From positions 32,488,001 to 32,552,000 of the forward strand of contig JBNRSN020000012.1 in the NCBI GenBank assembly GCA_051313645.2: a stretch of DNA of 64,000 nucleotides, read 5' to 3'. Position 1 is the first letter of the stretch. Each line of letters begins with the position of its first letter. The notes beneath the pieces were generated by a model that made no database searches, had not been told where the DNA came from, and saw nothing but the letters and a program-made list of their open reading frames with translations. The DNA is from Centroscyllium fabricii (lineage: Eukaryota). Shown here in pieces: positions 4,691 to 42,984 of the stretch. The translations under genes were made by a program, and so were the position numbers.

Positions 4691-6108
4691 CAAAAAAAAA
4701 CATTTTCACTTGCCCGAACATAAGTTTCACTTGCCTGAAATTTATTTAAGAAATAGATCAAAATGTAACATTTTTGTTGGAATGCTTCAGTGTAGGGCCA
4801 TGGAATGTGATTGTGCCTTTGGTTGCATTGGCTCGGTTGGGCAGCTTGAGTGTAGAGACTGATTTGCAGTTGGGCGGGCCACGATTGAACGGATTGTGCA
4901 TTAGCAGGCTTATCCTGCTCACTGCGATACGGGCAGAGTCGTTGGGCATGCGTGTTCGGGTTTGTTCAGCGGGATATTGCTGGTACTGTTTGTGTTTGCT
5001 TTCTGTCTTGAGCGGTGTGTTGTGTCAGCTGAGAGGATGGAATCCTCTTGTGCTGTGTGGAGGGTGCTGTTTCTTGGAGAACGGAGGTGGGTCATTTGAG
5101 GGGAGGTCAGCAGCTGGAGTGGTTTGTGAGCCTCAACAGTGGACTGGGATGTTGCAGGATCACTGAAGGGGGGCGGTTTGAGGATGGATTCTACTGCTTG
5201 GTGTTGGTTGCCCCCCGGGCAGAACCAACAGGACTATTAACAGCTTCTTCCCCTCAGCTGTCAGACTGTTGACAAAGAACTCCATCCCGTCTCATACTGC
5301 CTAGCCCTTGAAGATCATGAGATGCTATTATGTTCATAACCTGTTTGTACATAAGACCATAGCGAATATAACTTTTATATAGTGTATTTTTAACGGCATT
5401 TTAACCCACTGCACTTACTGTGTATACTCTTTTACTGTATATTATTATTATATATATGCATATAACTGCTGTTTGCACTCTGGTTGGACACACCTAATTT
5501 CGTTGCATTTTACTTGTACTGTGCAATGACAATAAAGCGAATCCAATCCAATCCAATCCAAAACTGCAAACATCTGTTGGTGCAGTTCCCCAGCTGCTAC
5601 AAACTCCCTTTTTTTTTTAGATGGTGAAACTTTTTGGAGCTGATCCATCAGGTTGTGTGTGTGCATCTTGCAATGAGAAGGGGCGGTTGTATTTGGTGAC
5701 TTGACCCTGATGTTTCATGTGCTTCCTGCCGCGCGCTCTCCGATTTCCCTTCCGGACTCGCTGACGCACAGGGTGAGAGGGGGGCGGCTCGCCTCGTCCA
5801 CTGTCCGCTTGGAGAGGTGCGGCCGGGGCCCGCCGTTCGGCGGCGCCGCCTGGCCGAATGGACGGCTGGCCCGCGGCGGGGAGTCTCAGACAGCCTCTCC
5901 AACTCTTCGTCGGCGCTCGCCGCCTAGCTGCGTGCGCACACACTAGGCGCTTTGCCGGGCCCGGCCGCTGCGCAGGCATCAGGGGGCAGGGCTTGGGTCA
6001 TGTCCGCACATCGTTTGTCCGGTCGGGCAAGTGGGATTTTCTTTTGCTTGCCCGACGGCGCATTTTGCTTGCCCCGGGCAAGCAGGCAAGCGGTTTTGTC
6101 ACGCCCTG
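4691..6108. mobile_element. Non-autonomous hAT-like DNA transposon inserted in Tx1 ORF2 (left TIR eroded)
   Basis: Splits the Tx1 peptide PRFYKG|LVETW. Right end TTTTGTCACGCCCTG is followed by CCCTTATA, with partial CCCTTA on the left. CTTGCCCG subterminal repeats occur at both ends (4708-4737, 6023-6090). Confidence 0.65.
5221..5559 (+). mobile_element. Rex1/Babar-like LINE 3' fragment
   Basis: Peptide RTNRTINSFFPSAVRLL, then a 3' UTR ending TGCAATGACAATAAA and an (AATCC)n tail. Confidence 0.6.
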
Positions 6109-7575
6109 CCCTTATAAAACCTAGGGAGAAGTTTAATCAATTTCAAAAACATATTATTGCATTCCATATACAATACTATCCCACTTCGTTTTAAAAAATG
6201 CTCAAAACTCTTCCAAAAACCTGTATTTGACTTCTGAAGAAATATCTTGACCCATTTGATTCTAAAGGATTTTTTCTTCAAATCAATATCTGAGAAATTG
6301 AGTCCTCCCTGATTTCTCTGTCCAATTATGGAATTGTAAGCGACTAAGGCTGATTTCCCTTCCCATAAAAGCCTCACACAAGCCTCTCGAATGGACTTTT
6401 CCGCCCACTCTGGGATATCCTCCACCATCAATAAGTACCATAGCTTAGATAGCAGGACAGCAGACACCACTATCGCTCTTCCTTGCACTTTCACCCACCT
6501 TCTTTACCATCTTCCCAAAATCTTTTTAATTTTCATACCCTTCACCTCAGAACTTAGCCCTTCCCGCATTAACACACCATCTATTCGGCACTGTTTTAAA
6601 ATATCACCCACCCAACCTGATCTGGAAAACTCCGTTTTTATGGGGTTCCAGTCCCTCCATAAGCCTCTCAAATTTAAATTTGCCATCATTTTTGCAATCA
6701 TCCCTCTGGAGTTATCATCCTTAAAGGTCATCTGGGCTGAAATGTCCATCCGAGATAAAAAATACATTAAAATCCCCCACTAGACAAGGATTTTCCATCT
6801 CTGCCACTTCAGTGAATAACCCCCGAAAAAACTCGCAATGCTTGGAATGGTCATTCGGTGCATAAATATTAAAGAGATCACAATTAAATCCCTCCATTTT
6901 TACCATTAGCCGTAAAAATCTCCCCTCCGTGTCTTTGTCCACCAAGGCAAAGTTCTCCTTTCTGGACGGACTCACCAAAACAGCCACCCCTCTATGGTTA
7001 TTGTTTGCACAACTTGCAAACACCTCTCCCTTCCAAACCTTCTGAACTCTTTCTAGGATGTCCTCATCCCAAAAGGTTTCTTGCAGACACAACACACATG
7101 TCCGTGCTTTTAAAACCCTGCAACAACTGCTGCAATTTCTTCTCACCCTTCAGTCCGTTCACATTAATCGAGAGCAAAGGGGAATATGCATGATAATCGT
7201 CCCATCATTTAATCTCTGGCCCTTCCCTCCTCTCATGCTCCTTCCCAACTTTTCGGCCAGCTGTTGCTTTTTTCTGCAGCCTCCGACTCTTTCTCACCTC
7301 CTGTTTGAACTTTCCCGGCTGTTTCAGCCTCTTCCTTGCATTATGTTTGGGTCCAGGAGCTGCCCTTTTTCCCCCCTTCTGCCCCTCACTAACCTTTCCC
7401 TTTCCACATGATGCTGCCCACCGCCCACTTCCTTGTCTCTGTCCCCCTCTAATTCATCACTCTCAAGCTCTTCTGTAACCCTCTGTGCCTGCTCTCCATC
7501 CGATACATAATCCTGCTCCCCATCAGATACATCTTCTCCCATAGAGAGTCTTGCTGCAATCGCAGTTTTTCCAAC

Positions 7576-9309
7576 CATAGATACATATAGAAAATAGGAG
7601 CAGGAGTCGGCCATTCAGCCCCTCGAGCCTGCTCCACCATTCAATGAGATCATGGCTGATTATCCAACTCAGTACCCCGTACAGCCTTCTCCCCATATCC
7701 CTTGATACCTTTAGCTCTTAGAACTATATCTAACTCCTTCTTGAATATATTTAATGACTTGGCCTCAACTACAATCTGTGGTGGAGAGTTCCACAGGTTC
7801 ACCACTCTCTGGGTGAAGAAATTCTTCCTCATCCCTGTCCTGAATGGCCTACACCTTATCCTTAGACTGTGCCCTCTGGTTCTGGACACTTCGACCATCG
7901 GGAACATTCTTTCTGCGTCTAGTTTGTCCAGACCTGTCAGAATTTGATAAGTTTTGATGAGATCCCCTCTCATTCTTCTAAACTCCAGCGGGTATAAGCC
8001 TAATTGACCCAATCTCTCCTCATACATTATTCCTGCCATCCCAGGTATCAGCCTTGTGAACCTTCGCTGAACTCCTTCCATGGCAAGAACATCCTTCCTC
8101 AGATAAGGCGACCAAAACTGCACACAGTACTCAAGGTGTGGTCTCACCAAGGCTCTGTACAACTGCAGCAGGACATCTTTGGTCCTGTAGTCAAACCCTT
8201 TCACTATGAAGGCCAACATACCATTTGCCTTCGTCATCGCCTGCTGCACCTGCATGCTTACCTTCAATGACTGGTGCACAAGAATGCCCAGGTCTCATTG
8301 CATTTCCCCGTCTCCCAATCTAGTCTACTTTTCTGTTTTTGACACCAAAGTGGATAATCTCGCATTTATCCACGTTATATTGCATCTGCCACACTTCTGC
8401 CCAATCACCCAACCTGTCCAAATCATCCTGGAGTTTCGTGGTATCGTCCTCGCAGCACACACGCCCACCCAGCTTTGTGTCATCTGCAAACTTGGAGATA
8501 TTACATCTAGTTCCCTTATCTAGATCATTAATGTATATTGTGAATAGCTGGGGACCAAGGACCGATCCCTGCGGTACCCCACTAGTCACTGCCTGCCACT
8601 CAGAAAAAGACCCGTTAATTCCTACTCTCTGCTTTATGTCCGCCAACCAGTTCTCTATCCAAGTCAATACCTTGCCCCCAATCCCATGTGCCTTAACTTT
8701 ACATGCTAATCTCTTATGCGGGACCTTATCGAAAGCCTTTTGAAAGTCCAAATACACCACATCCACTGGTTCTCCCTTATCTATTTTCCCAGTTACATCC
8801 TCAAAAAACTCCAGTAGATTAGTCAAGCATGATTTACCTTTAGTAAATCCATGTTGACTTTGTCCGATCCTGTCACTGTTTTCCAAGTGCTCAGCTATTA
8901 CATCCTTCATAATGGACTCCAGCATTTTCCCCACTACCGATATTAGGCTTACCAGTCTGTAATTCCCCGCTTTCTCTCTACCACCCTTTTTGAATAGTGG
9001 GGTAACATTAGCTATTCTCCAATGCATGGGCATAGTTCCAGATTCCAGCGAATGTTGAAAGATGATCAGTAATGCATCCACTATTACTAGGGCCACTTCC
9101 TTAAGTACCCTAGGATGTAGATTACCCGGCCCTGGGGATTTATCAGCCTTTAATCGCGTCAATTTCCCCAACTCCATTTCCCTACAAATACTGATTTCTT
9201 TCAGTTCCTCCCTTTCATCAGAACCTATGCTCTCCAACTTCTCTGGGAGGTTATTTGTGACCTCCGTTGTGAAGACAGAACCAAGTTATGCATTTAATTG
9301 GTCTCCCAT
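7576..9309 (-). mobile_element. 5'-truncated CR1 LINE inserted in Tx1 ORF1
   Basis: RT motifs KSPGP, NYRLVSL, VDVVYLDFQKAFDKVPH, GVPQGSVLGP, FADD; C-terminus LVRPHLEYCVQFWSP; CR1 3' hairpin and tail. Confidence 0.93.
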
Positions 9310-9507: not shown

Positions 9508-10620
9508 CTACTCCCCATCTTTCTTTGGAGTACTTACATTTACCTCGCCCCCCACTCCCGCCTCCTCTCCCCCCATGGTCACCAGATTCTCCAGGGAAAC
9601 CATATTAAGGCTCGAGTCTGCACTCCACCCTTGCTGCCCGCTGCTGTCTTTGTTCTTTTCCATTGTACTTGGTGTGTTTTCCACCATCTCCATCCTGTTC
9701 TCTGGTCCGCCATTTTCTGCCTCTTCCTGTGCTCTTTTCTCCTTCAGTTTACCCGCTGTGTCCTCTGACTGCTCCGCTCCTCCGGCCGTTCCACTCACAC
9801 CTCCTGCTCCTTTTCCCATCTCCTCATCACTCATAGAGCTTCCTTCTGCCTCAAACTCACAATGGGTGGGGCCTTGGTGACACACCCTACAGCTCTCTGC
9901 CTTGCAACTCCGAGCGATGTGCCCAGACTCGCCACAATTGTAACAGTACAAATCTAGACAGTTTCTTACAAGATGGTTGTGTCCAAGACAGTAATAACAC
10001 ACCTTCACTTGGTTATCATGCAGTACTCTGAGGTACTGCACTCCTTCCATTGTCTCGAATTTAATGCTGTACGGTAATGACCTCACCCCCTCTGGGAACC
10101 GCACCTTTACGTAACGGGCTCCATCTGCTACCTGTGTTCCAAGATAGTATCGCCTCCTTATTGCCGAGCAAATTTTAAGGTCCCATGACTCCAACTTTTT
10201 AATTAGTACATCATCCTCAATATAAATTGGCAAGTTTAAGAATGAGACCACCACCTCTTCCGAATATAGCAGAGATACCTCCAAGAACTTATCGCCAACT
10301 CTCGGACTGAGTAAAAGTCTTTCCACCTCCTGTCGGCCACTGACCATCACCTCGAACCCAACATTCGGCTTTGGTCGGCAGGCAAAGCAGCTTCCCTCGC
10401 CACAATCCTCACGTACCGCTTGGATAATACCCCAAGCTCGTATCTCCTTATCCTCGCACTGAACCACCACCGTGTTTTCTTTTCCAAACCTCCTGGGGTC
10501 CCGGCCCAAATCTTTGGGCCTTTTTCTTTCCCTTCCAACTGCAGTTTCTTCCCTAATTACATTAATCCTGGGAACACTGTCCTCTGAGGGGCCCGGCTCT
10601 CCAGACCCCTCAGCAGCCAT
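9508..10620 (-). pseudogene. Tx1-like ORF1 (gag-like, zinc knuckles); continues frameshifted to ~7250 across the CR1 insertion
   Basis: ATG at 10620 (MAAEGSGE...), VVSFLNLPIYIEDD, ADGARYVKVRFPEGVRSLPYS, CYYCLGHNHLVRNC, CYNCGESGHIARSC. Confidence 0.8.
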
Positions 10621-10632
10621 TTGGCTGTTGTT

Positions 10633-11034
10633 TAGAAACATAGAAACTAGGAGCAGGAGTCGGCCATTCGGCCCTTCGAGCCCGCTCCGCCATTCAATGA
10701 GATCACGGCTGATCACCCAAACCCAGTACCCCGCCCCTGCCCTCTCCCCATATCCCTCGATCCCTATCGACCCTGCACCGACACATATCCCACCCTATCC
10801 CCGTAACCCCACATATTCAATCCCCCTAACACTAAGGGTCAATTTATCCTGGCCAATCAACCTAACCCGCACATCTTTGGACTGTGGGAGGAAACCGAAG
10901 CACCCGGAGGAAACCCACGCAGACACGGGGAGAATGTGCAAACTCCACACAGATAGTCCCCCGAGGCTGGATTTGAACCCGGGTCTCCAGTGCTGTGAGG
11001 CAACAGTGCTAACCACTGTGCCACCATGCCGCCC
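10633..11034 (-). mobile_element. HE1-type V-SINE in the Tx1 5' UTR
   Basis: Near-identical to the copy at 2542-2942. Confidence 0.9.
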
Positions 11035-11897: not shown

Positions 11898-13724
11898 TTT
11901 ATTCATTTATGGGATGTGAGCATCACTGGCGAGGCTAGCATTTATTGACCATCCCTAATTGCCCTTGAGAAGGTAATGGTGAGCCACTGCCTTGAACCAC
12001 TGCAATCCTTGTGGTGAAGGTCTTACTATAGTTTCCTGTAGCGGTTTGATACTAAGTTGCTTGGTATGCCATTTCAGAGGCAGTTAAGAGTCAACCACAT
12101 TGACATTGGTAGTGGGGAAAATGCTAGAGTCCATTATAAAAGATATAATAGCTGAGCACTTGGAAAATAGTGACCGGATCGGACAAAGTCAACATGGAAA
12201 TACAAAAGGTAAATCGTGCTTGACTAATCTACTGGATATTTTTGAGGATGTAACTGGTAAAATAGATAAGGGAGAACCAGTGGATGTGGTATACTTGGAT
12301 TTTCAAAAGGCTTTCGATAAGGGACCGCATAAGTGATTAGCGTGTAAAGTTAAGGCACATGGGATTGGGGACAAGGTATTGACTTGGATAGAGAACTGGT
12401 TGGCAGACAGAAAGCAAAGAGTTGGAACAAACGGCTCTTTTTCCAAGTGGGAGGCAATAACTAGTGGGGTACCGCAGGGATCGGTCCTTGGTCCCCAGCT
12501 ATTCACAATATATATTCATGATCTGGACGAGGGAACTAGATGGAATAGCTCCAAGTTTGCAGACAACACAAAGCTGGGTGGGCATGTGTGCTGTGAAGAG
12601 GATGCCGAGAAACTCCAGTATGATTTGGACAGGTTGGGTGATTGGACAGAAGCATGGCAGATGCAATATAACGTGGATAAATGCGAGGTTATTCACTTTG
12701 GTGTCAAAACAAGAAGGCAGATTATTATCTGAATGGCAATAGATTGGGAGTAGAAGAAGTGCAAGGAGACCTGGGTGTTCTTGTGCACCAGTCGCTGAAG
12801 GTAAGCATGCAGGTGCAGCAGGCGGTTAAGAAGGCAAATAGTATGTTGGCCTTCGTAGTGAGAGGGTTTGAGTACAGGAACAAGGATGTCCTGCTGCAGT
12901 TGTAGAGGGCCTTGGTGAGACCACATCTTGAATATTGTGTGCAGTTTTGGTCGCCTTATCTAAGGAAGGGTGTTCTTGCCATGGAAGGAGTACAGCGAAA
13001 ATTCACCAGGCTGATACCTGGGATGGCAGGAATGATGTATGAGGAGAGATTGGGTCGATTGGGCTTGTACTCGCTGGAGTTTAGAAGAATGAGAGAGGAT
13101 CTCATTGAAACTTATAAAATTCTAACAGGACTGGACAGACTAGATGCAGGAAGGATGTTCCCGATGGTTGGGGAGTCCAGAACCAGGGGTCACAGTCTAA
13201 GGATAAGGGGTAAGCCATTTAGGACAGAGATGAGGAGGAATTTCTTCACCCAGAGAGTCATGAACCTGTAGAATTCTCTACCACAGAAGGCAGTAGAGGC
13301 CAATTCATTAAATATATTCAAGAAGGAGTTGCATATATTTCTTAAGGCTAAAGGGATCAAGGGATGTGGGGAGAAGGCAGGTACGGGGTACTGGATTTGG
13401 CTGATCAGCCATGATCTCATCGAATGGCGGAGCAGGCTCGAGGGGCCGAATGGCCTACTCCTGTTCCTATCGTCTATGTTTCTATTGCTGTGGGTCTGGA
13501 GTCACATATAGGCCAGACCAGGTAAGGACAGCAGATTTCCTTCCCTGAAGGACATTAGTGAACCAGATGGACTTTTACGTCAATCTGGTAGTTTCATTGT
13601 CACTATTACTGATACTAGCTTTTTATTCCAGATTTATTTAATTAACTGATTTTTTTAATTCCCCAGCTGCGTGGATTTAAACTCATGTATCTGGATCATC
13701 AGTCCAGGCCTCTCGATTACTGGT
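11898..13724 (-). mobile_element. tRNA-like SINE whose 3' tail matches the LINE at 1711-2978; split by CR1 into 11898-12102 and 13486-13724
   Basis: The tail (minus strand) GGCTCACCATTACCTTCTCAAGGGCAATTAGGGATGG...GATGCTCACATCCCAT matches 2486-2970. The body joins across the CR1 as CAACCACATTG|CTGTGGGTCTGGAGTCAC. Confidence 0.6.
12103..13484 (+). mobile_element. 5'-truncated CR1 LINE (degenerate RT to 3' tail)
   Basis: YLDFQKAFDK, GVPQGSVLGP, FADN, RPHLEYCVQFWSP with stops and frameshifts; same family as 7576-9309. Confidence 0.93.
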
Positions 13725-13742: not shown

Positions 13743-15591
13743 AGCTAAGCCTAGTTTATAAAGTATGATTTTATCTATTCCTCTCCACAAACCAGATGTT
13801 AGCGTGTCGTATAATTGACGTGTCAAAGAACCAGTCAATGGTGAATCTCTGGTTGGAAAGCTTCAGATAGGAACAATCAGTTTAGAGGGGCGGTGCTTAT
13901 CGAGGTTGATGGGGTGGAGGAAGGTTATTATTAGTGTTAATAACATTTAATTTATCATTATTGAAGCGGGTTCCGGTTAGAAACCTTTTTATTTCAATAT
14001 GTTTCATATGAAACTTGTGACAGAGGCAGTTTAGTTTGTGGACTGTCTGGAAAGTCTCTACAGACCTCCAGGGGTCCGCGGACCCCAATTTAAGGACCAC
14101 TGCTTGAAAACACAGCATCTTCTATAGAGCAGACACAAGGCTGCCAGCTGTGAAATAAAATGTTATACCATAACTAAACCTGACCAGAAGCATTAAGGTT
14201 CTGTGTTCTGTTTACACTAAGGCTCCTTCTTTCAATGTTTTTGTGGGTCAAAACATTCAACCATGGTATTTGATTTTCATGTCTCCACAAACCAAAACTA
14301 TGCTTTAAAATAGCAATAAACTTAATAATCCCCAAGTATCCTTTAGCAAAAAACCTTTTCTCTCCAATATTAAATACCTCTTGTGCATAAGCTGCTTTCC
14401 AGTGCACAAAAGCTATTTATTTCCATATATGCTCTGTGACTCTTATATTGGCAGAGTTTTCAGAAACGTAGAAGCAATATAGGATACACATCAGAAGTGA
14501 GTGTTAACATAAAACAGACCGAGTAGCTTCGACCATATAATTCACAAGTACTACAGACAAAAGTGATACATTTTCTACCAGCCACAGCTACTAACCTGCA
14601 CTATATGCATTTTATATTTTTTAAAGCCCTCTTTCACAGAGATTTGGTGAATTCATTTTGTTTGCTGATACTACAGTACAAGGATGCAGAGTGATACACC
14701 TGATGGCATTGTGTTGTGTGATTTGAAATCTGGGGGAAACGTTTAAAGGGCAAAAAAATTAAAAAGGGAAAAAATATTAATTCTGTAAAAAAAAAACTAA
14801 TAGAAAGCCTTTGAAATGAACAGGATGTGCAGTCAAAATGGGAGATTTCTCAACAATTTGGTGAAACTGCTCATGTATTGATTTTATGGAAGCATAAACT
14901 AATGTGTGAGCTGCTGGTATATCTCAAACACATGCTGTATAAATCTCTGTAAACCATAAATGTTCGAAGATGTAGATTATGTTATTTACAATTTTATACC
15001 TCAGGCATTAAACATGTATTGCTGGTTGCATGTGTGACATCACAGCCCCACTGATTTTCACTACCATTGACAACTTGACCTTTGCAGCCATTCATTCTGA
15101 CCTACAGGCACATGTTTTAAGTATAGAAACAAAAGAAAGTGACAGGTTTTGATAGTCAATAAGGAGAAACTGTTTCCACTGGCAGGAGGGTCAGTCAGCA
15201 GAGGACACAGATTTAAGGTAATTGGCAAGAGAACCAGAGGGGAGATGAGGAGATTTTATTAACATAGCGAGTTGTTATGATCTGGAATGTATTACCTGAA
15301 AAGGTGGTGGAAGCGGATTCAATTGTATCTTTCAAAAGGGAATTGAATACATACTTAAAAAGGAAGAATCTGCAGGGCTACAGGGAAAGAGCAGGGGAGT
15401 GGGACAGATTTGATAGCTCTTTCAAAGTGTCAGCACAGACGTGAAGGGGTGAACTCCGCTTAGAATCATAGAATCACTACAGTGCAGATAGAGGCCATTT
15501 CAGCCCATCGAGCCTACACTGACACATATCCAACCCTATCCCTGTAACCCCACATATTTAATCCCCCTAACACTAAGGGTTAATTTATCCT

Positions 15592-15773
15592 TAATGTGGA
15601 GGTGCCGGTGTTGGACTGGGGTGGACAAATGCAAGAAGTCACACAACACCAGATTATAGTCCAACAGTTTTATTTTAAATCACAAGCTTTCGGAGCTTCT
15701 GCCCCTTCTTCAGGTGAAAGAAAGTTAAAATAAAACTGTTGGACTATAATCTGGTGTTGTGTGACTTCTTGCA
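15592..15773 (-). mobile_element. Penelope-like fold-back element, copy A
   Basis: TSD TTAATTTATCCT (15580-15591 / 15774-15785); inverted arms; shared tail CCAGTCCAACACCGGCACCTCCACAT. Confidence 0.75.
15679..15717 (-). ncRNA. Minimal type-I hammerhead ribozyme motif (copy A)
   Basis: UCAC-CUGAAGA-A-GGGGC-AGAA-GCUCC-GAAA-GC-UU-GUGA. Confidence 0.65.
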
Positions 15774-17430
15774 TTAATTTATCCTGGCCAATCAAACTAA
15801 CCCGCACATCTTTGGACTGTGGGAGGAAACCAGAGCACCCGGAGGAAACACACGCAGACACGGGGAGAATGTGCAAACTCCACACAGATAGTCACCCGAG
15901 GCCGGATTTGAACCCGGGCCCCTAGCGCTGTGAGGCAACAGTGCTAACCAGCATGCCACCGTGCCAGAGCTGGGGAGCGGGACAGATTTGATAGCTCTTT
16001 CAAAGTGTCAGCACAGGCGTGAAGGGGTGAACTCTGGTGCTGCATAATTCTAAAGTAAGGGCTGGTCAAGGGCTAGATTAAATATGTATGAGGTTCTCGG
16101 TGATCCAGAGCGCTTATGTGCAGAAAATATCATGTTTTATTTGTAAATCACTCCCATTCCAATTATTCAGTTAACAATAATGAACAAAATGAGTGCAAAT
16201 CTATAAAATGACTTGGATTTATCTTCCCTTGTCCAAATATTCACCTTTTCATTTTTTCCTTAACAGGATTTATAAATATTCTTAAAAAATATATAGATAA
16301 CTCCATTTTATATCAAGTGGAATCAACAAAGTAGCTTCAGGATCATTTAAATAATGTTGCTGTATTACTGCGGGTACCAGTTTGACGCCACTATCTGATG
16401 TATCATTAGCACTACTGCAGTGCAAGGCAATAGTTTTGAATAGGACAACCAGTTTGGCACTGTTATCACATCAAGGGAGAGCGGAGCACTTGTCTGAATG
16501 TGTACCTACACATGGTCTGTCAACCAGTTCCAAACGCTGGTGACATTTAAAAAATGTTAGCGACGAGCCAAAAATTCAGAAGCACAAATCAATACTGAAG
16601 AGGCTAACTTATACGACATATTTTGGATTGCTGCAAAGGTGAAACCCCTTCTCAGCAATAGATATGAATGTGCAATATAAGGGCATTATTGTACTATAGA
16701 TCTCAATATTTAAAGCAATTTGGGTCATCCTGAGGTCATGAAGAACACTATATAAATGCAAATTCTTTCTTTAGTGCTATCCATAAGTAGATCAGCAACT
16801 TGAATTCCAAGCCGATGAGCACCTGACACAATTTCAGTTCCGTGCAAAAGTGGTGGCATAAGGATGATGTTATTTCCGTTGGTTCCGTGTTGCTTTCATC
16901 TAGCAACAGAGGAGCTCTGCCAATGAATGCAACCGCTGACCGGCTAGTTAAACTTTAGTGTTCAAAGAGCCGAGGCTGCCTCCTAAATTAAATATATGCA
17001 AATTTAAGTGTAAAAATATCCAGTAGACCACCTGTGAAATTTATAAACATGATTTTGCACGCCACTGCAGTATCCCATGTGCAACTCAAGTGGTGTGATA
17101 CTGTGCGGAGCATCAGTCCTGTCAGATGTCAGCCTAGCTCCAGAGTTGCACTACAACTTCACGTTTGCATCATTTAAATGTTCTTCACATTGACTGTATA
17201 TTACTACTTTCCTGGTCTGAGACCAGTGGCGGCACAGTACAGAGAACAGCTGGCAGGATCCATTTACCCATGGCTGCAAATTCAACTCATGCATGTGTGT
17301 GCAAATTGGTACAGCTCTAATACCCCAGGCGGTAAATAATTAATCTTTTCTAAGTGTGAAGAGGAGTGGCTGTTTCCTCAAAACATTACAAAAAGACTCT
17401 ACAGTAAATGTATAAACTGCCCAGGAACAC

Positions 17431-17660: not shown

Positions 17661-18041
17661 ATAGACATAGACATAGAAGATAGGAGCAAGAGTAGGCCAT
17701 TTGGCCCTTCGAGCCTGCTCCGCCATTCAACGAGATCATGGCTGATCATCCAAACCCAGCACCCCACCCCTGCCCTCTCCCCATATCCCTCGATCCCTAT
17801 CGAGCCTACACCGACCCACATATTCAATCCCCCTAACACTAAGGGTCAATTTATCCTGGCCAATCAACCTAACCCGCACATCTTTGGACTGTGGGAGGAA
17901 ACCGGAGCACCCGGAGGAAACCCACGCAGACACGGGGAGAATGTGCAAACTCCACACAGATAGTCACCCGAGGCCGGATTTGAACCCGGGTCTCCAGTGC
18001 TGTGAGGCAACAGTGCTAACCACTATGCCACCGTGCCGCCC
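17661..18041 (-). mobile_element. HE1-type V-SINE
   Basis: Near-identical to the copies at 2542 and 10633. Confidence 0.9.
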
Positions 18042-18076: not shown

Positions 18077-18385
18077 AACAACAACAACAACTTGTATTTA
18101 TATAGTGCCTTTACCACAGTAAAACGTCCCAAGGTGCTGCACAGGAGTATTTTACGACAAAGAAATTTGACACCGATCCACATAAGGATGAATTAGGGCA
18201 GGTGACCAAAGGCTTGGCCAAAGAGGTAGGTTTTAAGGAGCGTCTTAAAGGAGGAGAGAGAGGTAGAGAGGCGGAGAGGTTTAGGCAGGGAATTCCAGAG
18301 CTTAGGGCCTTGGCACCAGAAGGCACGGCCACCAATGGTTGAGCGATTTATAATCAGTGATGCTCAAGAGGGCAGAATCAGAGGA
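18077..18385 (-). mobile_element. L2-type LINE 3' end
   Basis: Minus strand GAKALSSGIPCLNLSASL...SLKPTSL-like C-terminus and tail AAAGGCACTATATAAATACAAG(TTG)n, shared with the Deu-SINE tail. Confidence 0.7.
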
Positions 18386-18395
18386 TTCAATAAGA

Positions 18396-19197
18396 TCGAG
18401 TATTGTGTGCAGTTTTGGTCGCCTTATCTGAGGAAGGGTGTTCTTGCCATGGAGGGAGTGCAGCGAAGATTCACCAGGCTGATACCTGGGATGGCAGGAA
18501 TGACGTATGAGGAGAGATTGGGTCGATTGGGCTTATACTCACTGGAGTTTAGAAGATTGAGAGGGGATCTCATTGAAACTTATAAAATTCTGACAGGTCT
18601 GGACAGACTGGATGCAGGAAGGATGTTCCCGATGGTCGGGGAGTCCAGAACCAGGGGTCACAGTCTAAGGATAAGGGGTAAGCCATTTAGGACTGAGATG
18701 AGGAGGAATTTCTTCACCCAGAGAGTGGTGAGTCTGTGGAATTTGCTGCCTCAGCGAGCTGTGGAAGCTGGAACATTAAATAAATTTAAATAGACAGCTT
18801 TCTAGCTGATAAGGGAATAAGGGGTTACGGGGAGCGGGCAGGGAAGTGGACGTGAATCTAAGTTCGGATCAGCCATGATCCTATTAAATGGCGGAGCAGG
18901 CCCGAGGGGCCGTATGGCCGACTCCTGCTCCTACTTCTTATGAATTTCTTCACCCAGAGAGTGGTGAACCTGTGGAATTCTCTACCACAGAAGGCAGTGG
19001 AAGCCAGTTCATTAAATATAATCAAGAAGGAGTTGGATATATTCCTTAAGGCTAAAGGGATCAAGGTATATGGGGAGAAGGCAGGGAAAGGGTACTGAAT
19101 TTGGATGATCAGCCATGATCTCATTGAATGGCGGAGCAGGTTCGAGGGGCCAAATGGCCTACTCCTGCTCCTATCTTCTATGTTTCTATGTTTCTAT
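18396..19197 (+). mobile_element. CR1 3' fragment with a second CR1-subfamily tail nested at 18732-18941
   Basis: EYCVQFWSPYLRK...NFFTQRVV and two successive 3' tails. Confidence 0.88.
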
Positions 19198-19513
19198 CAC
19201 GGCTGATCTTCGATCTCAACTCCACTTTCCCACCCAATTCCCATATCCCTTGATTCCCCCAGAGTCCAAGAATCTATCTCCGTCTTGAATATACTCAACA
19301 ACTGGGGTAGAGAATTCCAAAGGTTCACAACCCTGCCCAGTGAAGAAATTCCTCTTCCTTTCCGTCCTAAATGGCCGATAAATACAAACTAAATGGAGTT
19401 TATACTCCACATGGTGCCAACCCCACCTGGTGTGAGGAGTCTTCCTTAGATGGCCCTCTCCGCTTGCTGGGCTTCAGTACATAGCGGAGTCAGGTGGGGA
19501 CCTCTCCTCTCTC

Positions 19514-19830: not shown

Positions 19831-19904
19831 AATCTATCTCCGCCTTGAATATTCTCAATGACTGGGGTAGAGAATTCCAAAGATTCACAACCCTGCCCAG
19901 TGAA

Positions 19905-20114
19905 CAAATGCAAGAAGTCACACAACACCAGGTTATAGTCCAACAGTTTTATTTTAAATCACAAACTTTCGGAGCGCTGCTCCTTCCTCAGGTGAAGTGG
20001 GAAGCAGCAGCGCTCCGAAAGCTTGTGATTTAAAATAAAACTGTTGGACTATAATCTGGTGTTGTGTGACTTCTTGCATTTGTCCACCCCAGTCCAACAC
20101 CGGCACCTCCACAT
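19905..20114 (+). mobile_element. Penelope-like fold-back element, copy B
   Basis: TSD CCTGCCCAGTGAA (19892-19904 / 20115-20127); the empty site is visible in the duplicate at ~19332-19344. Confidence 0.8.
19958..19995 (-). ncRNA. Minimal hammerhead ribozyme motif (copy B)
   Basis: UCAC-CUGAGGA-A-GGAGC-AGC-GCUCC-GAAA-GU-UU-GUGA. Confidence 0.55.
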
Positions 20115-20383
20115 CCTGCCCAGTGAAGAAATTCCTCTTCCTTTCCGTCCTAAATGGCCGATAAATATAAACGAAATGGAGTTTATACTCCACATGGTGC
20201 CAACCCCACCTGGTGTGAGGAGTCTTCTTTGGATGGTCCTCTCCGCTTGCTGGGCTCCAGTACATAGCGGAGTCAGGTGAGGACTTCTCTCTCTGGATTA
20301 TTGGCAGCCACTTTCGCCATTGTGCATGGGCGCAGAAAGGGCGTAAACGCGCCCACTGAGGCGGTGGGTGATTGCACCAATTA

Positions 20384-21140: not shown

Positions 21141-22159
21141 CAAGACTGCAATCCACCCATCTGCTGGCTGCTGTTTTCTTTTATTAAATGACACAATGCA
21201 TGCAAAAACGCTGAAACCTTTAACCCAATAACGATTTTAATATTTTCACGTCACTTTTGTTCATTGTTTCAACATTCAATCCGGATTCTTATTCTGCACC
21301 CCCTGACATACTTCCAACACAGTAAACTAGCTGCGCGTGTAATACAACGAAACGAGAGAGAGAGAGACATCGATCGCCGGTAAAGTTTTCTTCAGAATCG
21401 AGCGAAGAAAAAGAGAGGGGGGTGGGTGGTAATTGAAGAAAAGCGCACGTCGGGAATGGGAGAGGGAGTTATTGGGAGTAACCTCTCACCCGGAATCAGT
21501 GCCAGAGAGAAGCACCAGCGACTGTGAACAAGCACAGCAAGAAAACAAAATTACAACCAGCAACAAGACTGAGGATCAACGCAACATGCTTCCAACCAGC
21601 GCCAAGTGGGCACAACCCCTTTCGATTGCCTCGGCTGATATTACTTGCACTTTTTCTTTATCACAAATGCAATAAAAAAATATTGATCTGTACAACTGCA
21701 ATAGTTCTCAACATTCCATAATACATGCTAATTCTTATCACTAAATACTTATTTCCAATTTGTATGTGAACGTTCAAAGAAACTCTACATTTCATACGCA
21801 AACAAATCCTAAACATCACAGAGAAATACGCATTTATGCTTGATAAATGTATAATTGTGTTTGTGTTTTATAATTATTATTTATAACTATCGTCACAATA
21901 ATCATTTAAGTTGTTTTTTTTAAAAACTGGTCTACATTGTTGGACGTTTACTTGAAAGTGATCCTGACAATCGCAACCAGGCCAGGCTCTGAACATTTTC
22001 TCAATTTAACCACCAGACCCCGCAGAAAGAAAAAAAAAGCATTTACTGAGTAAGTTCCTAACTGGACGAGTTACTTTTGGAAAGTTGCGTACAGTAGAAT
22101 TGTGAATTGTGGCGGATAGCAAAGAATGACGATGCACGTTACAGTTTAAAATGTGTGTA

Positions 22160-22307
22160 AATGTAAATGAAATATGCAAATGAAATATACAAATATGCAA
22201 ATAAAATATACAAATGAAATATACAAATATGCAAATGAAATATACAATTGAAATATACAAATATGCAAATGAAATATACAAATATGCAAATGAAATATGC
22301 AAATGAA
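22160..22307 (+). repeat. AT-rich minisatellite containing six ATGCAAAT octamers
   Basis: Units GAAATAT(A/G)CAAAT / AT(A/G)CAAAT; ATGCAAAT at 22174, 22195, 22229, 22263, 22284 and 22297. Confidence 0.9.
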
Positions 22308-22838
22308 CGATATAATTACGACACTTTTCGAAGTAATGTAGTGGGAAATTAAGTTGAAATGTACACTTCCCTTTTGGTTTGCGTTCAGCTCGTCGTTTCC
22401 CAATCAGATAACCGTCGCACAAAATCTTCTTTTGGTGCTTCACAATCTTGCCTTAGCTGCTGGTTCTCCAATCGGTGTTTTATGGCAGTTTCTAAAATAA
22501 TGCAGTGATGTTTTTTGTTGCTCCCTTGTTTTACCTTCGGATCCTGCGGAGGAAATAATCTGGACAAATGACAACATACCGAAAGAGATGTATATATTTG
22601 AAACGCACGCATAAGAGGGATGGATGAAAGAGAAACCAGGTTCTTCGTGACAGGTCCGGTACTTGTTGGTAAACATTTGTAGGACTGCAATGCATGACTT
22701 TTCGAAATGAAGAGTTGGTTGGACGACCACACAAAGACAAGGCTGGGCCTTTGGAAATTTAAACATTATTAGTTCTCAAACACACAACCGTCGTGCATTC
22801 TAAAACATGCATTCGTTTTAACTACCTTTGTTGAACTT

Positions 22839-23045
22839 ATAATGTAGAGGTGCCGGTGTTGGACTGGGGTGGACAAATGCAAGAAGTCACACAACACCAG
22901 ATTATAGTCCAACGGTTTTATTTTAAATCACAAGCTTTCGGAGCTTTTACCCCTTCGTCACCTGACGAAGGGGCAAAAGCTCCGAAAGCTTGTGATTTAA
23001 AATAAAACCGTTGGACTGTAATCTGGTGTTGTGTGACTTCTTGCA
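22839..23045 (-). mobile_element. Penelope-like fold-back element, copy C
   Basis: TSD TTTGTTGAACTT (22827-22838 / 23046-23057); near-perfect palindrome centred at 22961-22962. Confidence 0.8.
22957..22996 (+). ncRNA. Minimal hammerhead ribozyme motif (copy C)
   Basis: GUCAC-CUGACGA-A-GGGGC-AAAA-GCUCC-GAAA-GC-UU-GUGAU: stem I GUCAC/GUGAU, stem II GGGGC/GCUCC, palindromic AAGCUU in place of stem III. Confidence 0.7.
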
Positions 23046-26000
23046 TTTGTTGAACTTGTGCACATTGGCCATACATCACATCACATGTGTTGTACCGATT
23101 GCCCCTGTCCTTACGATAGAAATAGCCGAGATTGTAATATATGCTTGAAGCTCCAAGTTCAAATATGTATATAAAAACGGAGAATATTGCGGTGTTTTAA
23201 TAAACGTGGCCTATGTAGTGCAATTTTTAAAGAAAGTTTGCTATTTATGATTGAAATTAACAGACGGTATCACCATCAACAATTAAACCATAGAAGCCAG
23301 ACAGTAAAAGCAATATTCATGTTTTTAATGTTCTACCCGTCTGTTGATTTTTACTGTATGCATGCAGATATTATTCTCACAATTATTGTCGTGTTAAAGT
23401 TTGTGTAACACACGCGGCGAAATATAATATTGCTTTGTTGAGTATTGTCTAATGGGTGTTTTTGAACCGAAATTACCAGCTAAAATTTTTTAAAAAGAAA
23501 CTTCACAACGTCAACGTTGACTTCCAGTGGATTCGAAATGCTGTCCAAGCAAACCGGCGAAAAATTCTACATTAAGCCGGCAAGACACCGTTCATTTATT
23601 TTGCTTGCAGAGTATTTACATGCACTAATATTGTTAACGTTATGATGGTCATGCATTGTTAGTACTCAGTAATAGCGGGTTTGTAATATTACATTTTTTT
23701 GTGGCCACGTCAAACCAAACCTGTCCATGCGACCTGCAAATCCTAAAGAGTATTTCAGAATTCCAAGGTTAAAAGAATACACAAAAAAGAGATACACCGT
23801 GTTATTGTAATGTGCATATGTCAATTGTTTAATGCATAAGGATTTGTGCTTTTATCGCTGTCTATTCGGGGCCTAAGATAAATTTAGCGAGGGAAAAAAG
23901 CTAACAAACCCGCTCACAAATCCTGCGCTCCTATTATTTATGCTGTATTAGTTTTCACTACAGGTGCTTATTTGGCGCGTTGGAGTTGCTACATTTTGCC
24001 CATCTGCACCTATGGCTGTTGCGGCGCCTACGTTTTGTGGCATCATTCAACGATTAACAATATTGCTTTTTGACTTAGCCGAAATGTGTACTGTACTTAA
24101 AAATGGGCGAGTTTATAAACAGCAACAATAAAGTGGGCAGAAATGGAAATATATTATCAATATATGTTAGATTTACTAAATAATTATTATGAAACTGAAT
24201 CTAAATTGACCCGCATTACCTTGTACGCTGTCAAATTGAATAGACTGCCAGATTCATTTACTGTTCTGTCACATGATTAGCAATCTGATTTTCGGTGAAG
24301 TCCTAATTATAATCATATATTATGGACATCAGCAATGCAAATAAAATATACTAGCGTGTACTAAATATACATATATATATGTGAATACTATAGCTTAGGA
24401 CATAATACAATGCCACTGAGTTTGCCTCTCGCTAACAGCAATCAGCATCCATATAGATGACATTGAGTCATCCAACACAACCTGCTTTAACGATGCAATC
24501 CGCACAATGGTGGTTCACACCGGTGATATATTTTATGAAATCCTGATAAAGTCCAAATACATTTTCCACAGACAAAAAGTAAACGTGCTGATTTAACGTG
24601 AACATTATCCCGCCGTAGAAAAAAAAATATGACTTTTAAATCAGGGATTGGTGTAATTGAATAAGTTGGTCATATGGGAACTAGCATTAAAAAAATGACC
24701 ATCGTATTATTTACACAAACTATCTGAAAATGTTTTTTTAAGTACTTATATCAATAGGTTTAACGTTTTAATTTAACGTTTAAATGCTGTACATTTAATA
24801 ACTATATCGCAAATCTAAAGCTCAAGGAAGCAGCACAATAATTTAAACATTTTGATTCTGGCTGTGTATTTTGCAAGTATAAATATGTATGCGGGGACAT
24901 TTAAAGCATTTTAATTTATACAGATTTAATTATTGTGGTATCACATTAGCGAGTCTTAAAAGCTGCCGTAAGTGACTGGTAACTAATTTGTCCTGCACGG
25001 TGTCAGCGGCCAGCCTTTAATATAAGGTCAGTAGATGGTGATTGTAATAAATATTCACCAGCACGTGTAGCACTGTTGGCCACATTTGCACTCGGCGCAC
25101 TGCGCATGTACCGCGACTGCCTGCACCACAGCCCACTGTGTGTGACTCCGCCAAAGTGAAGTTCCCAGAAATGTTTCAAACCTCTCTGTGGCACAAAAGT
25201 CATTTGGGAAGAGAAAAAATTGTGTAACCGATTGCCTCGGTTGAAACTATTAATATTTGAACCTCTGGGTTGCCGTGACACAAATTGTAAGGCGAAATGT
25301 AGCATTTTTTCAACGCTAATTTCCCCCTTAAACATGTTTTGTGTAAAGTGCGTCATCTGGTAACCCCGTGCTATTTCGTGCGATCATTCTAACGCTGGAA
25401 TAAATGTTACACGTTGATGACAGCTTCCAGCTGCAGGTTAAAAATAGCAGCGATGTTCCACAGGCTGGTCGTCTTTTCTTTAGTTTTAGTGAATTGCACC
25501 GCTTGCAAGAGCCTGTCGGCAGTCAGCTTGCTTTTCTGTAGGTAAACAGGGAGAAAATTGTAAAGACACAAAGATCGAAACAGCAGCTTTTAAAAGCTCG
25601 GCGCTCTTCGGGTTAATTTAATTTACAATGCACTGTTTAGTAAGTGAACTTAAAAAAAACAAAAATGCCCGGCGATGTCCTTTTCTAACGCACATACACG
25701 ACTCTGACCCGACGTCATTGAATTGATTCCAGTTACCAATAATGAGTTTCTGTGCGTAGGACTGTTTAGCAGAGATACCTACCATTTCTAAAATAATATT
25801 AACAACTAGTTGCACTGAACATGACAGATCTGAGTGAAGAATTCCGTAAAGTGCGACCCCCCCATCCCCCCACCCACCCCAAAACTATACAAGCCAATCA
25901 ATGCTTGTAGACAAGGTTAGGATATTGCACTTAACATTGTTACATGCGTTCAGTTATTCTGTCCCACCTAATAAGGGTAGGAATCGTCAGTTGTAAACAC

Positions 26001-30561: not shown

Positions 30562-30870
<309 letters not shown>

Positions 30871-31852: not shown

Positions 31853-32375
31853 ACAAATATGCAAACATAGAATGAGGCAGAGAAAAGGAAGCGATGAACA
31901 AGAATATACTCAATTTGTTGGTTGTGGATTTATAAGGAAACGAGGTAAACCAGCAACAGTGGGTATTTTTCCCCTTTAGATACAATTAAGCTTAGCGATA
32001 ATTTAATTTAAAATAAACTCTTATCACGATGTATTTGCAGGTTAACTATTTTTCCGTCAATATTGGAATAATTAAGCATAGCGTTTAATATTGTCATAAA
32101 ACCGCACAACGTCATACATTTCTATATATATATATTTTAAACAGCGCCCGTAACTCCAGTATAAATAGCACAGAGAGTTAAGCAAAAGCAAAATACTAAA
32201 CATGTTAATTTTATTCTGATATAAATATTTATTTGCACATGCATCTACAACACGTTTACTAAATAAATACTTGGAGCGTCCCGTTTATTTAAAAATGAAA
32301 GTAAGATAGAAACGGTTATAAATGCTTCGCAGTATTTCAGTTTCTCCTTTACACTTTTAAATACAGTCACCATAC

Positions 32376-33351
32376 CTGTGTGAGTTCTTTTGTGGATCTT
32401 GAGATTTTCTGATCTGGCAAAGACCTTGCCGCAGCCAGGGAATGGACAGGGGAATGGTTTCTCGCCAGTGTGGACTCTGATGTGATTTACAAGTTTATAT
32501 TTGGCTTTGAAAGGCTTTCCCTCTCTTGGACACTCTTCCCAGAAGCAGATATGGTTCGACTGCTCTGGTCCCCCAACGTGTTCCACTGTTACGTGAGTAA
32601 CCAGTTCGTGCATGGTGCTAAAAGTTTTGTTGCAGGATTTTTTAGGATTCGTCAACTGTTCGGGCTCGACCCATTTACATATGAGTTCTTGCTTAATGGG
32701 CTGCCTCATATAACGAAAGAAGGCCCCGGCCCCATGGTGGGCCGCCATGTTCATGTTCATGGGGCCATAGCTGTGCAGCTGGGTCGAGGCGTAGTGGTCC
32801 GATCTGGGACTGGTGACCTGGCTGTATTGGTCTGCTCTGCCGTACATGTCCCCAGAAAAGCCTAAGCGCATTTGGCCGTTCATTACATGTGCATTGGGAG
32901 AAGCGTGGGTCGTCGCCTGCTCGTGAAGCCCCGGGAAGAGTAGGTGCCCCGCGGCGTCAGTATGTCCATGGGGTCCCGCAAAGCTGCCCGCGGCCGCCGC
33001 CGAAGCGAACAGGCTGTGGCCGGCGCTGGCCGCCGCCGCGTCCCCGAAGCCCCGGTTGCGAAACAAAAAGTCTCGGGTCGAGTTGAACGCCGCGCTGCTG
33101 TACGAACTCACATGGCCGGGATGGTGACCCAGAGCCGCGGCGTAGCCCGGAGCCTGCGACGTGAAGGCGGTCTGACCCGAGGCCAGATCGTGAGTGCTGG
33201 GGCTGATTTTAAAAGCCCCCATCCCGTCCGCGAAAGGATTGATACCCAGCCCCACTTCTCGGTCGTTGACATCGCCTGTTGAGTGATGTCGGGATGATCC
33301 GAAGGTAGTCACTCCTAGAGTAGGATATTGAGGTCCAGCGTCCAGAAGCAT
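32376..33351 (-). CDS. ZIC1: Zic1 coding exon 1 (N-terminus, ZOC motif, ZF-NC, zinc fingers 1-3)
   Basis: ATG at 33351 gives [10 protein letters not shown]..., then TRDFLFRNR (ZOC), [19 protein letters not shown] and C2H2 fingers to HKRTHT-G. GT donor at 32375-32374, phase 1. Confidence 0.97.
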
Positions 33352-33719
33352 CGTCTGGCGATGGGGGGAGCAGAGAAGGAATAATGATACAAAAAAAAAA
33401 GCAAGCAAAGAATTCACAACGAAACTTGCTTAATATAAAATAGTCTCTGAGTCTGTTTGGAGCACTTGCAAAAACTCCTTATTTTTCTCTCTCTCCCTCT
33501 TCTCTCTTCGGCGTGTGGGAATTTGCTGGAGATTATTATTTTTTTTTTTCCAACCCCCTTCTTGCAAACGCAAATCATGCAATATTGTCTTTTTTTGCGG
33601 TTTATCTTCCTGGGGAGAAACTTTCACCTCATCAGCCGGGCGGTGAGCTGGAGAATGATAGCGGCAATCATTCCTGCAGATAAATGAATTGAAAAGACAA
33701 CACCATCCCCTTGATGAAT

Positions 33720-36900: not shown

Positions 36901-39001
36901 TTTTTTTTAAAGACATGATTTTACGCATTATTTGAAATGCCCTGATGCTAAATGTCACTGTATAGTCAGGATTCTTTGTATACCGTTTCCGTGTGTTAGA
37001 TACCGTTCCGTTTATTATACTTATCCCTATTAAAACTGATTCGAATGAAGTTAGTCAGTTGGCTTTTTGCGCGCAAGGATAGCTCTGAAGTCGCCGACTT
37101 TTGAAATACCATATCGTTTGACCCCTGACCCGTGACCGACCACATGTGCCAGAGCCACACAATGCCACATAATGCATACCTTCCAAAATATTAGCTGTGT
37201 TGAAAGTAAAGTCACTGACCAAAGTTGAAAACAACAGTTCAAAATATAAGTGCTCTTTATTTTGACCAGCAAACGGAATGCATATTTTTCCCGATTATTA
37301 CGTTGATATAAAGCTGTCCTTTAGTTATATCCACGATAGGGGCTCCAGTGGTGAGTGCTTCAGTGATTTGTTTCTTTTTTCTGTGTTTTTTTAAAAACTT
37401 TCCTTTCTTATTATTCATGCAACCGAGATTATGTATGATTTGTACACTTGCACTGGGTAAAAAATACCTCAACAAAGCAAATTCAAATTTCAGCTCGTAT
37501 TCCAGCGATGTCTGGGCAAACTCAAGTATCAACTGTTAGTTAAAATAGCGCCCAAAGCCTCGCCTTTAAACAAATTATTATACTTCCGATTAGGCAGACA
37601 CGCGCGTTTCTAGTATTTTATTTCAAGCAGCCCATGACTTTGAATTAAAATTCCAACTGCCAAAGGTTTGTCTGAGAAACTTTGGGGGGTGGGGGGAAGT
37701 TTTGCAGGTCACCCTTTGCCTTTACCCATTATCCGCCTGCCCGCCTTGAGATCACCGTTAGAGATTTGATTGGTATTTGGGGCGATGTGTTCAGACAGAG
37801 CTATTTCCATTTTCTGAAATTATTTCCAACATATATATACAAAGTAATATTCCCCTGTGAAATTCGCGTTACAATCTTTGTAGGTGTTTTACCCAACGTA
37901 TTGGTGTGTCCCGTGTTTGAAATAAAAGATTTTGACACTAATTCCTCTTTTTTTTTTACTGAATTTATTCACGGGGTGTTTAAAGATTACGCAAAGAGTT
38001 AAAGCCTCCAGATTTCCAAATTTTGGGGAGGACAAACTTTGTATCCTTGTGTTTGGCTTTTTTCCCCCCTCTATTCGGACGTCAGTGGAACTGTAACCCT
38101 AACAGAGGCGATGATGACATTGGAAATACGCGCGTGGTTTTGTTGAAATGTATATTTTTGATTTTTCAAAAAGCTACCGTAAAGTATGTCAGGACACAAA
38201 TGCTTTCACGTTGTACCTGAAAATTCAGCAGGTTTGGGGGATTGGGCCAATCTATCAGCAGCTGTGGTTAAGTTTAAAGATAAGGTTGCAAATCTACAGC
38301 AAGAACTGAAACGTCACAAATATATCCTGCAAATAATATGGTATTGGGCCAAATAAAATTCGAGAAAAAAAACACGTAAAAAACAGAACGGAAAAAATAG
38401 GAGGCCATGCCTACTATGGCGGTTTTGGATCAATCATTTCTTCTGGAAAATATTACGTTCACACAGTAATCATTTATTTTAGTATTACTAGATGCATTCT
38501 ATGCACAAGCAGCCTTTTAACTGTTCAACAGGACAAAGGGTCGCCCCATTAGATGTGGCCAGGTATCCACTGCGACGCTGTGATTCCCCTTCTTGTAGCC
38601 TAAAACCTGACTGGAAGAACTTGAAACTAAAAATATAAGCGAACCGTGTCATTTTGACAATCTTGTTATTTCTTAAAAGAACATCTGTATCCTTAAAGCA
38701 CACGCCCAACAATTTCCAACTTTGCTTCATTGGAGTCGCTTGGTCTATCTGTCTAGTTATCTGGCTATTTAGTTATCTGGCTATTTATTTATCTGCAACA
38801 TTGTACCAAAAAAAGTTACTACGCCTGCACTTTTTTTTAGGTTGTCAAACATCCCACGGTGTTGCTGGCGCTGTCTGAGGTATGTGTAATTTAATGGAAT
38901 GGACGTATTTTGGAATAAAGTGCAGACTCTTACAAAATTACACTCACGGTGAAAGATGACGATGCACTGGTTATTTTGCAGGTCTGTGTATTTTTTTAAC
39001 T

Positions 39002-39217
39002 NNNNNNNNNNNNNNNNNNNNNNNNNNNNNNNNNNNNNNNNNNNNNNNNNNNNNNNNNNNNNNNNNNNNNNNNNNNNNNNNNNNNNNNNNNNNNNNNNNN
39101 NNNNNNNNNNNNNNNNNNNNNNNNNNNNNNNNNNNNNNNNNNNNNNNNNNNNNNNNNNNNNNNNNNNNNNNNNNNNNNNNNNNNNNNNNNNNNNNNNNNN
39201 NNNNNNNNNNNNNNNNN
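39002..39217. other. Assembly gap (216 N) in the Zic1-Zic4 intergenic region
   Basis: Run of N; the right flank is CA-rich. Confidence 0.99.
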
Positions 39218-42808: not shown

Positions 42809-42984
42809 TTGCAAGAAGTCACACAACACCAGATTATAGTCCAACAGTTTTATTTTAAATCACAAGCTTTCGGAGCGACGCTCCGAAAGCTTGTGATTTA
42901 AAATAAAACTGTTGGACTATAATCTGGTGTTGTGTGACTTCTTGCAATTGTCCACCCCAGTCCAACACCGGCACCTCCACATCA
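42809..42984 (+). mobile_element. Penelope-like fold-back element, copy D (perfect 71-bp arms)
   Basis: TSD TGGTTAAATAA (42798-42808 / 42985-42995); arms 42807-42877 and 42879-42949 with a 1-nt spacer. Confidence 0.82.

Follow-up and report, generated by a model that had tools for sequence, protein, structure and literature searches.

What do three short hammerhead ribozyme motifs represent in this part of the Centroscyllium fabricii genome: self-cleaving RNAs in their own right, or pieces left by a larger mobile element? A preliminary description of the 64,000-nucleotide stretch of DNA analyzed here as a whole (hereafter the window) assigned them to a short Penelope-like element (PLE) family of elasmobranchs and read them as a self-cleaving RNA module. 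Our analysis indicates that they lie in insertions which are very probably the 5'-truncated pLTR ends of an endonuclease-bearing PLE retrotransposon of sharks, copied from uncleaved RNA.

Minimal hammerhead motifs in the window

A hammerhead motif search, run as a descriptor scan over both strands of the window, returned three type I sites in total, exactly those listed there (copies A, B and C; Table 1). Each has stem I UCAC/GUGA, the CUGANGA core, one extra A, a 5-bp stem II, GAAA, two nucleotides and UU, as had been described, and the differences between the copies had also been recorded correctly: N7 is C in copy C, A in copy A and G in copy B; loop II reads AAAA, AGAA or AGC among the three; the third pair of stem II is A-U in copy B and G-U in copies A and C; and GAAA is followed by GU in copy B. 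This GU is probably a later mutation, because the other arm of the same insertion has GC. The positions first given were essentially right, with both minus-strand ranges 1 nt too wide; on the plus strand, the range 22957-22996 took in G22957, which belongs to an inverted arm, the motif with its 4-bp stem I occupying 22958-22995. The AAGCUU palindrome pointed out earlier is present, and the part of it available for dimer pairing is AGCU, the flanking A and U being core bases by established hammerhead numbering. AGCU is found in copies A and C and in the partial arms of insertions B, C and D, with the wobble version AGUU in the full copy of B. In all three copies the core (CUGANGA...GAAA...UH) is closed by stems I and II, and the motifs have an unpaired base between positions 9 and 10.1 and a G10.1-C11.1 pair. 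They thus fit the minimal hammerhead (min-HHR) of metazoan PLEs as PMC4209133 defines it, where positions 15.2-16.2 are palindromic, stem I has 4-5 bp, A9 is followed by an extra base and a G10.1-C11.1 pair is present; this bears out the original classification.

Could the pattern be a chance word in an unrelated repeat? Three observations leave some room for this. First, copies A, B and C count as about one independent motif because they are copies of one repeat family. Second, none of the 14 matches that an Rfam search of the window gave at E ≤ 5 is a hammerhead, and all are below the gathering score; they are miRNA-type hairpins and one antitoxin, the top ones reflecting the fold-back described below. 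Third, conservation of the core is suggestive only, with 0 of 12 core columns variable among the three motif copies against 6 of 26 other columns (P = 0.15), and conservation elsewhere in the element is similar to that of the core. Against this, the minimal descriptor was found in just 1 of 150 simulated order-1 Markov windows and in 0 of 150 order-3 Markov windows; the extra A, the G10.1-C11.1 pair and the palindrome are traits outside the descriptor; and the element displays an independent PLE anatomy. We therefore regard a chance origin as practically negligible. A complete type I fold is present in 3 of the 32 CUGANGA words of the window, and tolerating one core mismatch in the window scan yielded no further hammerhead sites.

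Table 1. Positions in the window of the hammerhead motifs, the insertions that carry them, and neighboring features
Feature	Position	Strand	Details
Minimal hammerhead, copy A	15680-15717	-	In long arm; predicted cut between 15684 and 15683
Minimal hammerhead, copy B	19959-19995	-	In short arm; GU at stem III remnant; predicted cut between 19963 and 19962
Minimal hammerhead, copy C	22958-22995	+	In short arm; C3=22962, N7=22966, extra A=22969, stem II 22970-22974/22979-22983, G12=22984, palindrome AGCU 22987-22990; predicted cut between 22991 and 22992
Insertion A	15592-15773		182 bp; long arm 15592-15724 (-), inverted short arm 15725-15773 (+)
Target duplication of A	15580-15591 / 15774-15785		12 bp; host is a SINE-like repeat
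Insertion B	19905-20114		210 bp; short arm 19905-20003 (-), long arm about 20001-20114 (+), truncated near stem II start; host is another repeat
A+C-rich tail of B, long arm only	20079-20114	+	36 nt, 69% A+C
Target duplication of B	19892-19904 / 20115-20127		13 bp
Insertion C	22839-23045		207 bp; long tail-bearing arm 22839-22961 (-), inverted short arm 22958-23045 (+)
Target duplication of C	22827-22838 / 23046-23057		12 bp
Insertion D	42809-42984		176 bp; fold-back centered on ribozyme loop II; partial motif, no CUGANGA on either arm
Target duplication of D	42798-42808 / 42985-42995		11 bp; site between Zic1-like and Zic4-like coding exons
Insertion E	57191-57290	-	100 bp; single tail-bearing arm with the last bases of the motif only, running from about 3 nt before the predicted cut to a terminal ATG
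Target duplication of E	57179-57190 / 57291-57302		12 bp
Zic1-like coding exons	32245-33429, 30562-30870	-	zf_ZIC match
Zic4-like coding exons	46318-47601, 50442-51092	+	Divergent from Zic1-like; Pfam and protein comparison
LINE reverse transcriptase and 3' pieces	7650-9285, 12088-13378, 18230-18793	-, +, +	Pfam RVT_1; 600-bp inverted pairs; presumably CR1-like
Broken LINE	4459-7149, 9508-10794	-, -	APE endonuclease piece and 428-aa zinc-knuckle ORF1, split by repeats; presumably Tx1/L1-like
SINE-like repeat, four copies	2719-2945, 10808-11034, 15743-15969, 17815-18041		227 nt
A-rich tandem array	22136-22318		Steps alternate between 8 and 13 nt; 500 bp away from insertion C
Assembly gap	about 39000-39218		Window contains 216 N

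The motifs lie in fold-back insertions

The motifs had been described as three copies. Self-BLAST and a repeat search of the window show that they are not free-standing but lie in insertions bounded by target duplications, and bring the family to five members of 100-210 bp each, insertions D and E being the two missed earlier. The target duplications are exact in all five cases, with lengths of 12, 13, 12, 11 and 12 bp for A to E, and four of the five have an A+T content of 67-83%; the same search at 3000 random places gave a duplication of at least 10 bp in 0.2%. Moreover, empty counterparts were found for three insertions. The host repeat of insertion A has uninterrupted paralogues at 10763-10965 and 17815-17972, and that of insertion B at 19271-19506, each with the target present once. 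The empty site of insertion C is seen in run X19 (organism H), where a contig of 9428 nt joins 22839 directly to 23059; contigs of run X1, perhaps the source sample, cross both junctions of the insertion at single-copy depth. Thus, A, B and C are discrete insertions, and C, being absent at the orthologous site in organism H, is recent and lineage-restricted.

The repeat is very abundant in sharks: a 701-base stretch matched 29760, 6025, 5089 and 2082 contigs in the read assemblies of four runs (organisms A, B, C and H), with almost all of the depth on the element, where the summed depth (which is not a copy number) reaches millions against about 7 for the flanks. Among the contigs of run X1, compared where at least 80% alike, the listed A and T changes all fall outside the motif, with three C/G changes unplaced. 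Position C11.1 reads T in 1-6% of the depth across the four runs (5.7% in X1), at a CpG site where the change gives a G-U pair, and in the runs other than X1 N7 is U or G, with A-U in stem II. Within the window two subfamilies can be told apart, with T before the terminal ATG position in A, C and E and C in B and D; stem II has a G-U pair with a 4-nt loop in A and C and an A-U pair with a 3-nt loop in B.

Arms, tail and junctions

Insertions A to D consist of a long arm joined head to head to an inverted, shorter and tail-less arm, with 91-99% complementarity between the two. In every insertion the long arm, read in the ribozyme sense, ends at a common point 90-94 nt past the predicted cut, and in A-D the short arm ends 32-39 nt before it. 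The tail is accordingly present on exactly one arm in all four two-armed insertions, with lengths of 32, 37, 38 and 39 nt. Long inverted arms of such complementarity, together with target duplications, would also be seen in a DNA-transposon MITE whose terminal inverted repeats happened to include a hammerhead-like word. MITEs, however, have equal terminal inverted repeats, a fixed duplication length and a uniform body, and here the arms are unequal by 32-39 nt, the duplications vary between 11 and 13 bp, the centers differ, E is one-armed and the motif is rare by chance. This makes a MITE origin highly improbable.

The predicted cut site is crossed by eight of the nine arms (by only about 3 nt in E), the exception being the short arm of A, which starts 5 nt after it; the RNA templates that were copied were therefore uncleaved. 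All five insertions have their 5' junctions in or beside the ribozyme motif. Those of A and B lie 7-8 nt above stem I, with the long arm of B beginning near the start of stem II; that of C is a TCA/TGA microhomology overlap inside the ribozyme core; that of D falls at loop II; and the 5' end of E is at the predicted cut. The junction is thus different in each of the four fold-backs, and at most one arm per insertion carries the full core. Variants characteristic of a subfamily are common to both arms in C (N7=C and one downstream C) and in D (one A), consistent with a single RNA species as template or with one arm having been copied from the other. Among 15 joints listed for run X1, out of a set that includes 67 more, the greatest depth belongs to a loop-II fold-back like that of D (1117, about 150 times the single-copy depth of ~7), and the same kind of fold-back recurs in runs X5 and X10.

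The high copy number and this recurrent, deep loop-II fold-back are what one would expect if the 100-210-nt palindrome were itself a mobile RNA, a non-autonomous retrozyme or SINE-like unit excised by the ribozyme and moved by a PLE enzyme; indeed, PLE-derived retrozymes are reported from one chondrichthyan genome in bioRxiv 10.64898/2026.07.22.740005. A unit of that kind is hard to reconcile with a junction that differs from one fold-back to the next, with no more than one full-core arm per insertion, with a ribozyme blocked by the fold-back in B and C, and with inverted arms in place of the head-to-tail repeats that define animal retrozymes. We accordingly consider it unlikely and favor truncated pLTR ends of a PLE.

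Sequence beyond the tail and the search for the parent ORF

In the window, the tail ends of all five insertions are closed by target duplications. In the assemblies of all four runs, the loose ends that extend past the tail read ATG in the ribozyme sense, and those of X1, X5 and X10 read ATGGCTA (345, 51 and 48 contigs), with an agreement of only 0.39-0.45 over 30 letters; insertions D and E run into the same ATG. From this shared position, the ATG is probably the ORF start of the parent element. In the other direction, the consensus of the loose ends in X1 and X5 has TCAGT about 12 nt above stem I. We take this to be an initiator-like motif, which makes it a possible transcription start in the parent element. 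The loose ends themselves have a median of 9-13 nt above stem I; we do not read this as evidence for a transcription start, since lengths of this order are expected from short contigs in any case.

A Pfam search of 143 of the 178 window ORFs of at least 75 aa found no GIY-YIG domain; the other 35 are mostly alternative frames over the Zic exons, the LINE pieces and the N gap. The domains recovered were LINE-type reverse transcriptase (RT), endonuclease and zinc-knuckle pieces and Zic. Protein searches with the peptide read upstream of the ATG, a set of short and weak queries, gave no matches, and DNA patterns of the element had 0 matches in prokaryote-centered viral, metagenome and prokaryote genome collections. 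Shorter DNA patterns hit 17 + 44 loci, of which 0 of 61 align over at least 35 nt, and these were set aside as chance. Membership in the PLEs hence rests on insertion anatomy and the ribozyme, since the parent RT/GIY-YIG ORF was not found in the window. Thus, the Penelope-like assignment of the preliminary description gains an inverted copy, a 30-40-nt tail and a target duplication, while the RT/GIY-YIG linkage did not emerge in the window.

Genomic neighborhood

The window covers a head-to-head Zic1/Zic4-like locus, in which Zic1 is named from sequence likeness and the zf_ZIC match. The first exon of Zic4 has 94% identity to a catshark protein cluster, the other 57 matches lying at 44-73%, which supports the elasmobranch host that had been proposed. 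The zinc-finger parts of the two Zic first exons (32374-32645 and 47249-47520) are 97% identical in DNA over 272 nt, and the second-exon pair (30719-30836 and 50653-50770) is 80% identical; the high first-exon identity may reflect gene conversion between the inverted paralogues. Pieces of LINEs and SINE-like repeats are scattered through the window (Table 1). Several of the SINE-like copies are joined to a LINE-like 3' end, and insertion A landed in one copy.

Folding and likely activity of the copies

In isolation, the motif folds with stems I and II paired at probabilities of 0.77-1.00. Forcing the ribozyme within its insertion costs 45 kcal/mol in B and 49 kcal/mol in C, because the inverted arm pairs with it, and 2.7 kcal/mol in A. 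In copy A the ribozyme sits in the fold-back loop, and its stems have probabilities of 0.03-0.05 in context because upstream pyrimidines pair with the core in a competing fold. Pyrimidines able to pair with the G8-A9-stem II strand and so block the ribozyme are present at 15718-15724 and in the run consensus above 22958; in the parent element, such a stretch upstream of stem I is a possible off-switch, judging from the modeled pairing. Nearest-neighbor energies, which omit the core contacts and are a weak test of a dimer fold, give -19.9 kcal/mol for the double hammerhead, which is less favorable than two monomers (-22.4) or the cofold minimum (-24.2). None of the motifs in the window has an adjoining same-strand tandem partner, the nearest same-strand full motifs being 4.3 kb apart in separate insertions.

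Might one or more copies nevertheless be functional ribozymes and cleave host RNA, such as read-through transcripts extending downstream of Zic1? Copies A and B lie on the Zic1 strand, the cores are intact, and the ribozyme of copy A could be formed at a small cost. Yet the energies demanded in B and C and the low stem probabilities in A speak against cutting, as do the 4.3 kb between A and B and the recent arrival of C, and min-HHR monomers did not cleave in vitro (PMC4209133). We judge host-transcript cleavage very unlikely. With B and C trapped in fold-back hairpins, and with every copy lacking an adjoining tandem partner on its own strand, A, B and C are unlikely to act as cleaving modules and are likely fossils rather than working modules, so that the earlier label of a self-cleaving module overstates what these copies are.

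A model for the origin of the insertions

We propose that the insertions derive from a PLE whose RNA would carry the minimal type I hammerhead, about 90 nt and then the probable ORF start codon, in that order. By analogy with work on an anole PLE, the PLE protein would cut both target strands 11-13 nt apart, and reverse transcription of each arm would begin at its own internal site, the two sites lying 32-39 nt apart. Uncleaved RNA would then be copied back across the ribozyme, with copying stopping in or just past it, and the two ends would be joined through self-complementary patches of the ribozyme, namely the stem II hairpin, TCA/TGA and the upstream pyrimidines. In our view, the ribozyme hairpins may supply the priming point. 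In the parent, the ribozyme is predicted to cleave weakly, most likely in dimers paired at the AGCU palindrome, with the assistance of the PLE protein, or both; in the five copies of the window it would be a passenger.

A further and more tentative reading, which we put forward as a doubtful possibility, is that the main effect of the ribozyme on the genome is to set the end point of reverse transcription rather than to cleave: copying of uncleaved RNA would halt either on reaching the folded hammerhead or a few bases above it, where the RNA begins, and the hairpins would then offer a snap-back or annealing point for the inverted arm. It is suggested by the position of all five junctions in or beside the motif and by the recurrence of the loop-II junction in X1, X5 and X10. 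If it were true, the mass of 100-200-bp insertions in sharks would amount to an in vivo map of the PLE integration step, recording two start sites, a cut of both strands with an 11-13-nt stagger and ribozyme-guided closure. A young family with five insertions per 64 kb, clean duplications and ribozyme-clustered junctions offers a large natural data set on which models of how inverted PLE copies arise can be compared.

Comparison with known systems

Our literature search, which was thin on subscription journals, Repbase and preprint supplements, recovered no published description of this shark family; two supplement files of PMC4209133 gave 0 matches to shark or ray names, and the supplement file of PMC8557442 that was searched holds no shark name.

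In all tested sequence traits, including the 4-bp stem I, the shark motifs resemble the min-HHRs of metazoan PLEs (Cervera and De la Pena 2014, PMC4209133). These are mostly single motifs of truncated PLEs, sometimes in close opposite-strand pairs, and their multimers cleave weakly in vitro (PMC4209133). Stem II has 5 bp here versus 7-8 bp in the Schistosoma min-HHR families, and published families often have 6-8 bp (PMC4209133). A further difference is that no parent ORF was seen for the shark motifs.

The insertions themselves are comparable to those of EN+ PLEs, which combine an inverted 5'-truncated pLTR copy with a 30-40-bp tail and a target duplication (Arkhipova et al. 2013, PMC3846280; Craig et al. 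2021, PMC8557442). Shared features are the head-to-head inverted copy, the tail at one end, the target duplication, a pLTR that reaches the ORF start (in the shark family, the probable one), and palindromic junctions, the last being interpreted in PLEs as self-priming (PMC3846280). Differences lie in the target duplications, which are 11-13 bp here versus 8-10 bp in Adineta PLEs, and, relative to complex EN+ PLE insertions, in the small size of the shark insertions (100-210 bp), their lack of an ORF and the location of every junction in or beside the ribozyme.

A biochemical counterpart is the Poseidon element PAc of Anolis, for which the tail was shown in vitro to span the interval from one internal RT start site to a second (Frangieh et al. 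2024, PMC11167929). PAc cuts and extends both target strands, prefers AT-rich targets and uses uncleaved RNA as its main template; its ribozyme cleaves only with the protein and is dispensable for insertion in vitro (PMC11167929). The shark family is similar in having the ribozyme at the probable pLTR/ORF junction, an A+C-rich tail stretch, AT-rich targets and an uncleaved template. The two differ in layout. Stem II marks the beginning of the PAc ORF, and reverse transcription is initiated about 111-118 nt into that ORF (PMC11167929); in the shark family, the probable ATG is found about 90 nt past the cut site, at the same point as the tail end.

With non-LTR retrozymes (Li, Clavereau, Pollet, bioRxiv 10.64898/2026.07.22.740005) the shark units share a PLE derivation, a non-coding nature and a type I hammerhead. 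In retrozymes, ribozyme-bearing units are repeated head to tail in tandem, whereas the shark units are head-to-head fold-backs with at most one full core. The ribozyme is of a kind known since 2014, and these shark motifs add one family to a known class.
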